Positions 20,594 to 20,678 of a stretch of 54,001 nucleotides of DNA are shown one piece after another. Position 1 is the stretch's first letter. Every line of letters begins with the position of its first letter. Under the pieces are notes generated by a model that was not told the DNA's origin, made no database searches, and saw only the letters and a program-made list of their open reading frames with translations. A program made the translations under genes and the position numbers. Source of the stretch: an uncultured Pseudomonadales bacterium (GTDB taxonomy: Bacteria > Patescibacteriota > Microgenomatia > UBA1400 > PJMF01); assembly GCA_964447075.1 (NCBI GenBank), contig CAYUQY010000005.1, positions 1 through 54,001 of the forward strand. The letters run 5' to 3'.

Positions 20594-20678
20594 GGAGAGG
20601 TCGCATAGTGGCCTAGTGCAGCGGTTTACTAAACCGCCGTATCGCAAGATACCGAGGGTTCGAATCCCTCCCTCTCCG
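20594..20678 (+). tRNA. tRNA-Ser(ACT)
   Basis: Acceptor GGAGAGG/CCTCTCC, D-stem GCAT/GTGC, anticodon arm GCGGT-TT ACT AA-ACCGC, variable arm GTATC-GCAA-GATAC, T-arm GAGGG-TTCGAAT-CCCTC, discriminator G; all stems pair. Confidence 0.92.

Follow-up and report, generated by a model that had tools for sequence, protein, structure and literature searches.

A serine tRNA gene with the anticodon ACU, intact and under selection, is carried on a CPR/Patescibacteria chromosome. We found it in a contiguous stretch of 54,001 nucleotides, hereafter the window, and we found its relatives in other Patescibacteria, in some Planctomycetota and in the tRNA arrays of environmental phages. Most probably, the gene encodes a seryl elongator tRNA whose A34 is left unedited and which reads AGU by Watson-Crick pairing, and which has been kept as an old paralogue beside the canonical tRNA-Ser(GCU). 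Below, we describe the gene and its family, and then weigh the other readings of its role.

An intact tRNA-Ser(ACU) gene

ARAGORN called a tRNA-Ser(act) on the forward strand at 20594-20679, with the anticodon at tRNA position 35 by linear count. The Rfam tRNA model RF00005 matched 20594-20678 with 53.9 bits (gathering score 29, E = 7.3e-9). The original prediction, made from the letters alone, had claimed that every stem of this tRNA pairs, and this was confirmed. Indeed, the cloverleaf is complete, with an acceptor stem of 7 bp, a D stem of 3 bp, a variable arm of 5 bp, and a T stem of 5 bp. The anticodon stem, also of 5 bp (GCGGU/ACCGC), closes the loop UUACUAA (20626-20632), in which A34 is window base 20628. 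The discriminator is a G (20678) and CCA is not encoded, a single C being found at 20679. The fold energy was -37.4 kcal/mol versus a mean of -23.2 for shuffled sequences (z = -4.5), and none of 200 shuffles equaled it. A 7-bp acceptor stem, 5-bp anticodon and T stems, and a paired variable arm are the structure of a bacterial class II elongator tRNA-Ser. The 7/5 acceptor/T-stem geometry is not the 8/4 or 9/3 of allo-tRNA or tRNA-Sec-like serine acceptors, and none of the marks of a tRNA pseudogene, that is, broken stems, a low model score, or lack of conservation, was found.

Confirmation of the base at position 34 had also been called for. In Logan assemblies from two runs of the freshwater-sediment sample from which the window comes, A34 was covered, by contigs of 5903 bp at depth 25 and of 86 bp at depth 29. 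Since these two assemblies reproduce the tRNA without any difference, the base at A34 is real.

A promoter scan upstream of the gene yielded nothing convincing; to our own eye, TGGTAGAAT at 20546-20554 looks like an extended -10 element. A 152-codon ORF, called in a Logan contig, begins inside the tRNA. Read from its ATG at position 20697, this ORF encodes only about 117 residues, which match the initial third of an endonuclease/exonuclease/phosphatase domain (E = 6e-4), and it is probably a truncated gene.

Table 1. Positions of the tRNA genes and of other features of the window
Feature	Position	Strand	Description	Evidence
tRNA-Ser(ACU)	20594..20678	+	Class II, long variable arm	ARAGORN, Rfam RF00005, cloverleaf fold, two assemblies
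Anticodon A34-C35-U36	20628..20630	+		Direct sequence reading, ARAGORN
tRNA-Ser(GCU)	15030..15115	+	Canonical AGY reader alongside the ACU gene	ARAGORN, Rfam
tRNA-Ser(UGA)	11535..11621	+	Ser/Arg cluster member	ARAGORN, cluster order in relatives
tRNA-Arg(GCG)	8525..8597	-	CGY reader of the lineage, replacing ACG/inosine	ARAGORN, Rfam
tRNA-Ser(CGA)	6472..6559	-	Ser/Arg cluster member	ARAGORN, Rfam
tRNA-Ser(GGA)	176..261	-	Cluster member, parent of the decayed AGA copy	ARAGORN, Rfam
tRNA-Ser(AGA)-like copy	2051..2135	-	Decayed	38.2 bits, poor fold, duplication
tRNA-Val(CAC)	starts 53263	+		ARAGORN
Cupredoxin gene	18306..18803			
152-codon ORF	20592..21050		Probably a truncated gene	
Metal-resistance block	21258..29326			
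Fused GpsA/FGGY kinase ORF	38509..40743		744 residues	
Serpin gene	45225..46562		Full length	Pfam E = 1.5e-105

An old paralogue of tRNA-Ser(GCU)

We aligned 103 distinct ACT sequences and scored them on the cloverleaf of the window's gene. Pairing was kept in 99.6% of the paired cells. Changes on both sides of a pair occurred in 16 of the 23 pairs (411 cells), which none of 500 shuffles matched, and when the structure was altered by sliding the 3' partner by 1-3 columns, only 36-67% of the cells were paired. All family members had been found via patterns that fix ACT in the loop, so that conservation of the anticodon itself is not scorable here. Among the 103 sequences, G1, G2, and the discriminator G are invariant, A3 is present in 100, and C:G, the commonest pair at 11:24, in 82; the variable arm is long. 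In E. coli, the tRNA-Ser identity set comprises G1, G2, A3, C11:G24, and the discriminator G73, and the features of the ACT family match this set.

The original prediction had pointed out that the acceptor stem and variable arm are unlike those of the local tRNA-Ser(GCU). We found the divergence to reach further. Outside the anticodon arm and the T loop, the ACT and GCT genes of the window share an identity of 0.61, with compensating differences in the acceptor, variable, and also T stems, and ACT and GCT genes of the same genome share 0.60. For 117 of 118 ACT genes, the nearest neighbor was the ACT gene of a different genome. For the window's gene, the closest copies were those of a Woesebacteria MAG (L096) and of another MAG (L031), at 0.98 identity over the same positions. 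A GCT gene was present within the same 8-kb locus as the ACT gene in 56 of the 120 loci listed, sometimes only 4-25 bases away. Given that nearly all nearest neighbors are ACT genes and that same-genome GCT identity is so low, the ACT gene is, judged by sequence comparison, an old paralogue kept beside GCT, neither a replacement for it nor a recent mutant. Family covariation and the nearest neighbors thus bear out the original claim of selection over recent point mutation.

The Ser/Arg tRNA cluster of the window

The window contains eight tRNA genes according to ARAGORN, all eight matched by the Rfam tRNA model, and six of them are serine tRNAs located within the first 20.7 kb (Table 1), a segment that contains all serine isoacceptors as well as Arg(GCG). 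In the Microgenomates-type loci L096, L020, L119, L066, L110, and L016, tRNA-Ser genes with the anticodons GCT, TGA, ACT, CGA, and usually GGA are found within 3-6 kb, together with Arg GCG and CCG, and in four of these relatives (L020, L119, L066, and L110) the ACT gene is immediately preceded by Ser(UGA). Except for Arg(CCG), this Ser/Arg set is also present in the window, where it extends over 20.5 kb and is interrupted by accessory genes, namely, those for RadC, AbiEii, Bro-N, and a DinB-like polymerase accompanied by a DUF6504 protein. The ACT gene of the window was therefore vertically inherited, as it sits in the conserved Ser/Arg cluster of Microgenomates-type genomes; this place in the lineage's own cluster rules out a phage origin for this copy.

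Among the matches listed, CPR-type loci carried 11 Arg(gcg), 9 Arg(ccg), and no Arg(acg) genes. An earlier study had noted that CPR lack tRNA-Arg(ACG) and use GCG (Shulgina and Eddy 2021, PMC8629427). Both observations support the view that Arg(GCG), in which the original prediction saw a hint of missing TadA, is the CGY reader of the lineage.

The AGA copy had been described as decayed, unlike the ACT gene, and it does show the marks of a pseudogene: its acceptor stem is mismatched, its D loop and T loop are altered, and its fold has a z of -1.2, besides its low model score. It derives from the GGA gene by a segmental duplication (174-266 versus 2049-2140, 86% identity), which is old. Ser(aga) was absent from all related loci listed in the genome, metagenome, and viral sets, which places it outside the conserved set. 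The same duplication also copied a RadC fragment and a gene for a Pro/Ser-rich surface protein (932-1609 versus 3761-4423, about 66% identity).

The genes of the window are bacterial and include, in addition to those for RadC, the AbiEii toxin, the Bro-N protein, and the DinB-like polymerase, genes for a multicopper oxidase, a CzcA/CusA-like pump, GreA, glycosyltransferases, and a serpin. The closest relatives of the pump are from organisms named Patescibacteria group or Magasanikbacteria. The window is a piece of a CPR/Patescibacteria chromosome, probably from the Microgenomates side. The metal-resistance block consists of the multicopper oxidase, a BlaR1/M56-like peptidase, and the CzcA/CusA-like RND pump; a small ORF upstream of the peptidase may be its repressor, and another ORF may be a membrane-fusion protein. 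A cupredoxin gene is also present. Elsewhere, a single ORF fuses glycerol-3-phosphate dehydrogenase (GpsA) and FGGY carbohydrate kinase domains, and the serpin is a full-length one in a CPR genome.

Distribution in bacterial genomes

We scanned one genome per GTDB species with a narrow pattern (GGTTTACTAAACC, a gap of 15-30 bases, then GGTTCGAATCC). At least 120 loci were found, and ARAGORN called Ser(act) in 119 of the 120 listed. Grouped by record title and GC content, 66 of the 120 listed loci were CPR-labeled (Saccharibacteria, Paceibacteria/Parcubacteria groups, Microgenomates groups, and WWE3), 24 were labeled "uncultured Gammaproteobacteria/Pseudomonadales," 12 were titled "Bacterium" only, about 12 were Planctomycetota-type (11 by title and tRNA sequence; GC 0.50-0.60), 2 belonged to Verrucomicrobiota, and a few were singletons.

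The 24 MAGs titled Gammaproteobacteria/Pseudomonadales (L008, L011, L016, L033, L035, L045, L047-L049, L051, L054, L055, L057, L060, L066, L069, L072, L079, L083, L094, L102, L104, L110, and L115) have a CPR-like GC near 0.41, CPR-type tRNA clusters, and ACT tRNAs close to those of CPR-labeled genomes; three of them (L016, L066, and L110) carry the CPR-type Ser/Arg(GCG, CCG) cluster. Their taxonomic labels look wrong.

The Planctomycetota-type loci come from freshwater (L005, L012, L041, L065, L067, L068, L081, L097, L117, L122, and L052). Their Ser(ACT) genes are nearly identical among themselves, with the acceptor stem GGACAGA, and a related variant with this stem was also seen in IMG/VR contigs. 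On the Phycisphaerales contig L012, the gene adjoins xanthine dehydrogenase and molybdopterin genes. These cellular neighbors indicate that the L012 copy is chromosomal and not phage-borne, so a phage origin of the Planctomycetota copies was ruled out in this case.

Among the matches listed, tRNA-Ile(TAT) also recurs (in L034 and L063, among others), with 6 copies in genome loci, 14 in metagenomes, and 22 in viral contigs. This suggests that, in the groups bearing it, AUA decoding relies on a U34 tRNA and not on lysidine.

Metagenomes and phage tRNA arrays

A second pattern fixed the D loop (AGTGG...A), the loop TTACTAA, and the T loop only, leaving the anticodon stem free. It found at least 120 JGI metagenome loci and at least 120 IMG/VR viral contigs. 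The anticodon stems turned out to be diverse, with at least 27 variants, of which GCGGT/ACCGC was the commonest (25 of the 120 listed). A strict conservation of the anticodon arm GCGGU/ACCGC was therefore rejected as an artifact of the first pattern. A variant with C at position 32 (CTACTAA) was found in 72 further viral contigs, a complete count for IMG/VR. An equivalent GCT pattern likewise gave at least 120 matches, hence an ACT:GCT ratio is not derivable from these numbers.

In the viral ACT loci, tRNA genes form arrays, which among the matches listed contain 5 tRNAs at the median and 23 at most. Ser(act) is accompanied there by Thr(TGT), Asn(GTT), Glu(TTC), Gln(TTG), Gly(TCC), and Arg(TCT), and a GCT gene was also present in only 2 of the 120 viral loci listed. 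Single copies of other A-starting tRNAs, Gly(acc) and Thr(agt), adjoin Ser(act) in metagenome and IMG/VR loci (L123-L362).

A cultured example was found in Rhizobium phage RHph_TM30, in which GenBank annotates a tRNA-Ser(act) and ARAGORN agrees; its relatives TM40 and Y65 gave the same BLAST match. At this locus (L371, record positions 128636-142106), RHph_TM30 carries 20 tRNAs, mostly U34 readers of A-ending codons, and Ser(act) is the sole AGY reader among them (GC 0.40 over the 49 kb read). Otherwise, when cultured phages were searched by BLAST with ACT tRNAs, most matches were GCT or UGA genes (S-PM2, S-H9-2, S-CREM1, TSW001, XM05, RN05-S, and SCTP-2), ACT being found only in the RHph_TM30 group. 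The original prediction had called the anticodon "very rare," which fits databases of cultured genomes only: the gene is common in Patescibacteria and in phage tRNA arrays, and present in Planctomycetota.

Codon usage and decoding of AGN

In the window, AGT occurs 293 times and AGC 166 times, that is, AGT makes up 64% of AGY codons. The share was also 64% in the CPR-type loci listed, 67% in the metagenome loci listed, 69% in the IMG/VR loci listed, and 80% in RHph_TM30. The Planctomycetota carriers (GC 0.57, range 0.50-0.60) were the exception, and since AGT accounts for only 37% of AGY in Planctomycetota-type loci, an argument from AGU demand fails for them.

It had further been proposed that the tRNA might be either a dedicated AGU reader or an ambiguous decoder of AGN. 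The second proposal found no support. AGA is the commonest Arg codon of the window (14 per 1000), and among the loci listed, genomes with Ser(ACT) also use AGA heavily. When the RND pump was aligned with ZneA, its AGA codons faced Arg at 5 of 16 alignable positions and Ser at 1. The Codetta screen found among CPR only the reassignment of CGA/CGG to Trp in Absconditabacteria, apart from the already known reading of UGA as Gly in Gracilibacteria and Absconditabacteria; it reported no reassignment of AGA or AGG (PMC8629427). Thus, a reading of AGA as serine is unsupported by codon use, alignment, and screen alike, and the sequences fit AGA meaning Arg in the window. As for a dedicated AGU reader, it fits the excess of AGT over AGC as well as data from an engineered tRNA. 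Indeed, an orthogonal ACU tRNA in E. coli read AGU at 9.4% and AGG at 0.36%, whereas reading of AGC or AGA was not detectable; sequencing showed an unedited A at position 34 of this tRNA (Schmitt et al. 2024, PMC11066159).

The state of A34

The original prediction had left room for an untranscribed gene, yet ACT-type tRNA contigs are present in peat, soil, and wastewater metatranscriptomes. We counted exact matches over a 49-base stretch centered on the anticodon, allowing at most one mismatch to the window or L096 as reference. In four wastewater runs, the exact-ACT word depth was about 284 of 317 (X27), 504 of 558 (X28), 99 of 138 (X29), and 86 of 118 (X30). Hence, about 70-90% of the anticodon depth in these four metatranscriptomes was in contigs reading exactly ACT, these being assembled contigs rather than reads, from other organisms, with DNA or precursors as possible sources (several matching contigs are kilobases long), in libraries of a kind that under-samples mature, modified tRNA, and with shares that stand without inosine calibration, as tRNA-Arg(ACG) of L276, meant as positive control, gave nothing usable. 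The rest of the depth was mostly in kilobase-long contigs with a single, unplaced mismatch. Inosine is read as G in cDNA. Since the contigs read ACT, most sequenced molecules carry A, and A34 most likely stays A, in agreement with the unmodified A34 first proposed, on the indirect evidence of contigs from other organisms.

These data bear on the possibility that A34 is converted to inosine by TadA or a relative, in which case the tRNA would read AGU and AGC and, to a small extent, AGA, in the manner of eukaryotic I34 tRNAs of other boxes. TadA targets have the loop U-A-C-G, and the loop UUACUAA departs from it only at position 36, which is U in Ser(ACT). Planctomycetota carriers presumably possess TadA, and an engineered split-box Phe(AAA) became I34 in E. 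coli (preprint). However, the G that inosine would leave at position 34 in cDNA is not what most of the contig depth reads, an ACU tRNA stayed unedited in TadA-bearing E. coli (PMC11066159), and CPR, as seen above, use Arg(GCG) and do without Arg(ACG). No tadA candidate was found within the 54-kb window. I34 would also misread AGA, the very codon most used for Arg. We therefore hold inosine to be unlikely.

Position 34 of bacterial tRNAs is rarely bare, and A34 might bear another, possibly unknown, modification that tunes or restricts pairing while AGY decoding is still served. The wide conservation of the family would be compatible with this, and nothing direct speaks for it. At 20628, the exact-match contigs show A and no sign of miscoding, although many modifications leave no trace in cDNA, and CPR genomes are poor in modification enzymes (literature, context of PMC8629427). 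Such a modification strikes us as rather improbable.

Just as doubtful is a role outside ordinary decoding, either as a seryl donor for a tRNA-dependent transferase or as a spare AGY reader that evades a nuclease or toxin attacking the anticodon loop of tRNA-Ser(GCU). Phage tRNAs do escape anticodon-loop nucleases and toxins in the case of other tRNAs. The ACU tRNA is formally redundant with the GCU tRNA beside it, it is very common in phage arrays from which GCT is usually absent, and the window copy lies amid genes of defense or mobile type (AbiEii, Bro-N, and the DinB-like polymerase). Yet, neighbors vary by locus and no transferase or nuclease gene is consistently linked, the company kept in phage arrays and the AGU-rich codon use favor decoding, and the T and acceptor stems resemble those of ordinary elongators.

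Finally, a neutral leftover, assembly error, or pseudogene, that is, a drifting G34A copy of the GCT gene, has a negligible chance of being the answer, for although the window does contain one decayed copy, the AGA gene, the ACT gene shows compensating changes in every stem over 103 sequences and is transcribed in several environments, and the agreement of two assemblies, the covariation, and a body distinct from GCT also rule out a rare point mutant or sequencing error.

Discussion

The reading that we prefer is that Ser(ACU) is a functional seryl elongator belonging to the normal tRNA set of its CPR/Patescibacteria host. With A34 unedited, ACU would pair with AGU by three Watson-Crick pairs. 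AGU being the commoner AGY serine codon in AT-rich carriers, there would be a demand for the ACU tRNA, with the GCU tRNA covering AGC, and AGU by wobble. SerRS ignores the anticodon, and serine charging would follow from the tRNA body. Our data show the gene, its selection, distribution, and transcription, and an A in the sequenced RNA, and we infer charging with serine, reading of AGU only, and an unmodified A34 in the mature tRNA. This explanation does not account for an A34 tRNA being present in the Ser box but in neither the Phe nor the Cys box.

A close known counterpart is the canonical bacterial tRNA-Ser(GCU), which shares with Ser(ACU) the class II body, discriminator G, serine identity features, codon box, genomes, and often adjacency. 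The two are separate lineages, however, and G34 of tRNA-Ser(GCU) forms a Watson-Crick pair on AGC and a wobble pair on AGU, whereas A34 of Ser(ACU) would read AGU only. Other gene-encoded A34 tRNAs retained in lineages with AT-rich genomes are the Mycoplasma tRNA-Thr(AGU), with unedited A34 (PMC11066159), and Thr(AGT) and Leu(AAG) in some Firmicutes (2026 preprint). Like them, Ser(ACU) is retained lineage-wide. All described lineage-wide cases belong to four-fold boxes, in which a misreading leaves the amino acid unchanged; several of them take the place of the GNN tRNA, and Leu(AAG) undergoes editing to inosine. In contrast, Ser(ACU) belongs to a box split between serine and arginine, and its GNN partner is present as well. 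With the tRNA-Arg(ACG)/TadA system, it shares the loop U-A-C-N and a gene-encoded A34, but it has U36 instead of G, and its RNA reads A and not G.

The anticodon is also that of the engineered E. coli ACU tRNAs (Schmitt et al. 2024; Raval et al. 2026), which are AGU-selective, unedited, and tolerated or beneficial. E. coli grew better when Ser-tRNA(ACU) was overexpressed (Raval et al. 2026 preprint), and among split-box A-starting tRNAs, only Ser(ACU) and Ile(AAU) brought a benefit, most others being neutral or harmful (2026 preprint). These are laboratory constructs made on the premise that such tRNAs are nearly absent in nature, whereas Ser(ACU) is a natural conserved family. The phage Ser(act) tRNAs (RHph_TM30, TM40, and Y65) have the same anticodon, a class II body, and AGU-preferring genomes. 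They differ in lying in tRNA arrays, usually without GCT, while the gene of the window is chromosomal and part of a Ser/Arg cluster.

In the Ser/Arg split box, according to one review, A34 is "universally missing" (PMC8007984). A GtRNAdb survey found split-box A-starting tRNAs to be sporadic and always accompanied by a G-starting partner (2026 preprint), and one paper mentions a tRNA-Ser(ACU) in passing in an Acidithiobacillus tRNA array. The original prediction was to fall if Ser-ACT proved both common and already described in this lineage. Common it is, with at least 120 loci, but our literature search, in which subscription journals were mostly uncovered and bracketed anticodons unsearchable, yielded no paper that describes Ser(ACU) from CPR or from phages. 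The family thus appears to have been overlooked by the general literature.

The near-absence of A-starting anticodons in prokaryotes is an unsolved puzzle, both in reviews and in the 2026 study. Ser(ACU) marks one split box that tolerates A34, which matches the growth benefit seen in E. coli in the preprint. A conserved natural family provides natural test systems in place of engineered ones, and RHph_TM30 is cultured and ready for the laboratory. Ser(ACT) calls in CPR or phage genomes should not be discarded as pseudogenes or errors. Whether Ser(ACU) with a bare A34 is a standing tRNA across the Patescibacteria superphylum, some Planctomycetota, and a large share of environmental phage arrays is, in our estimate, evenly poised. 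If true, the oversight would stem from tRNA databases having been built on cultured genomes, and Ser(ACU) would be a widespread natural exception to the exclusion of A34 from split boxes.
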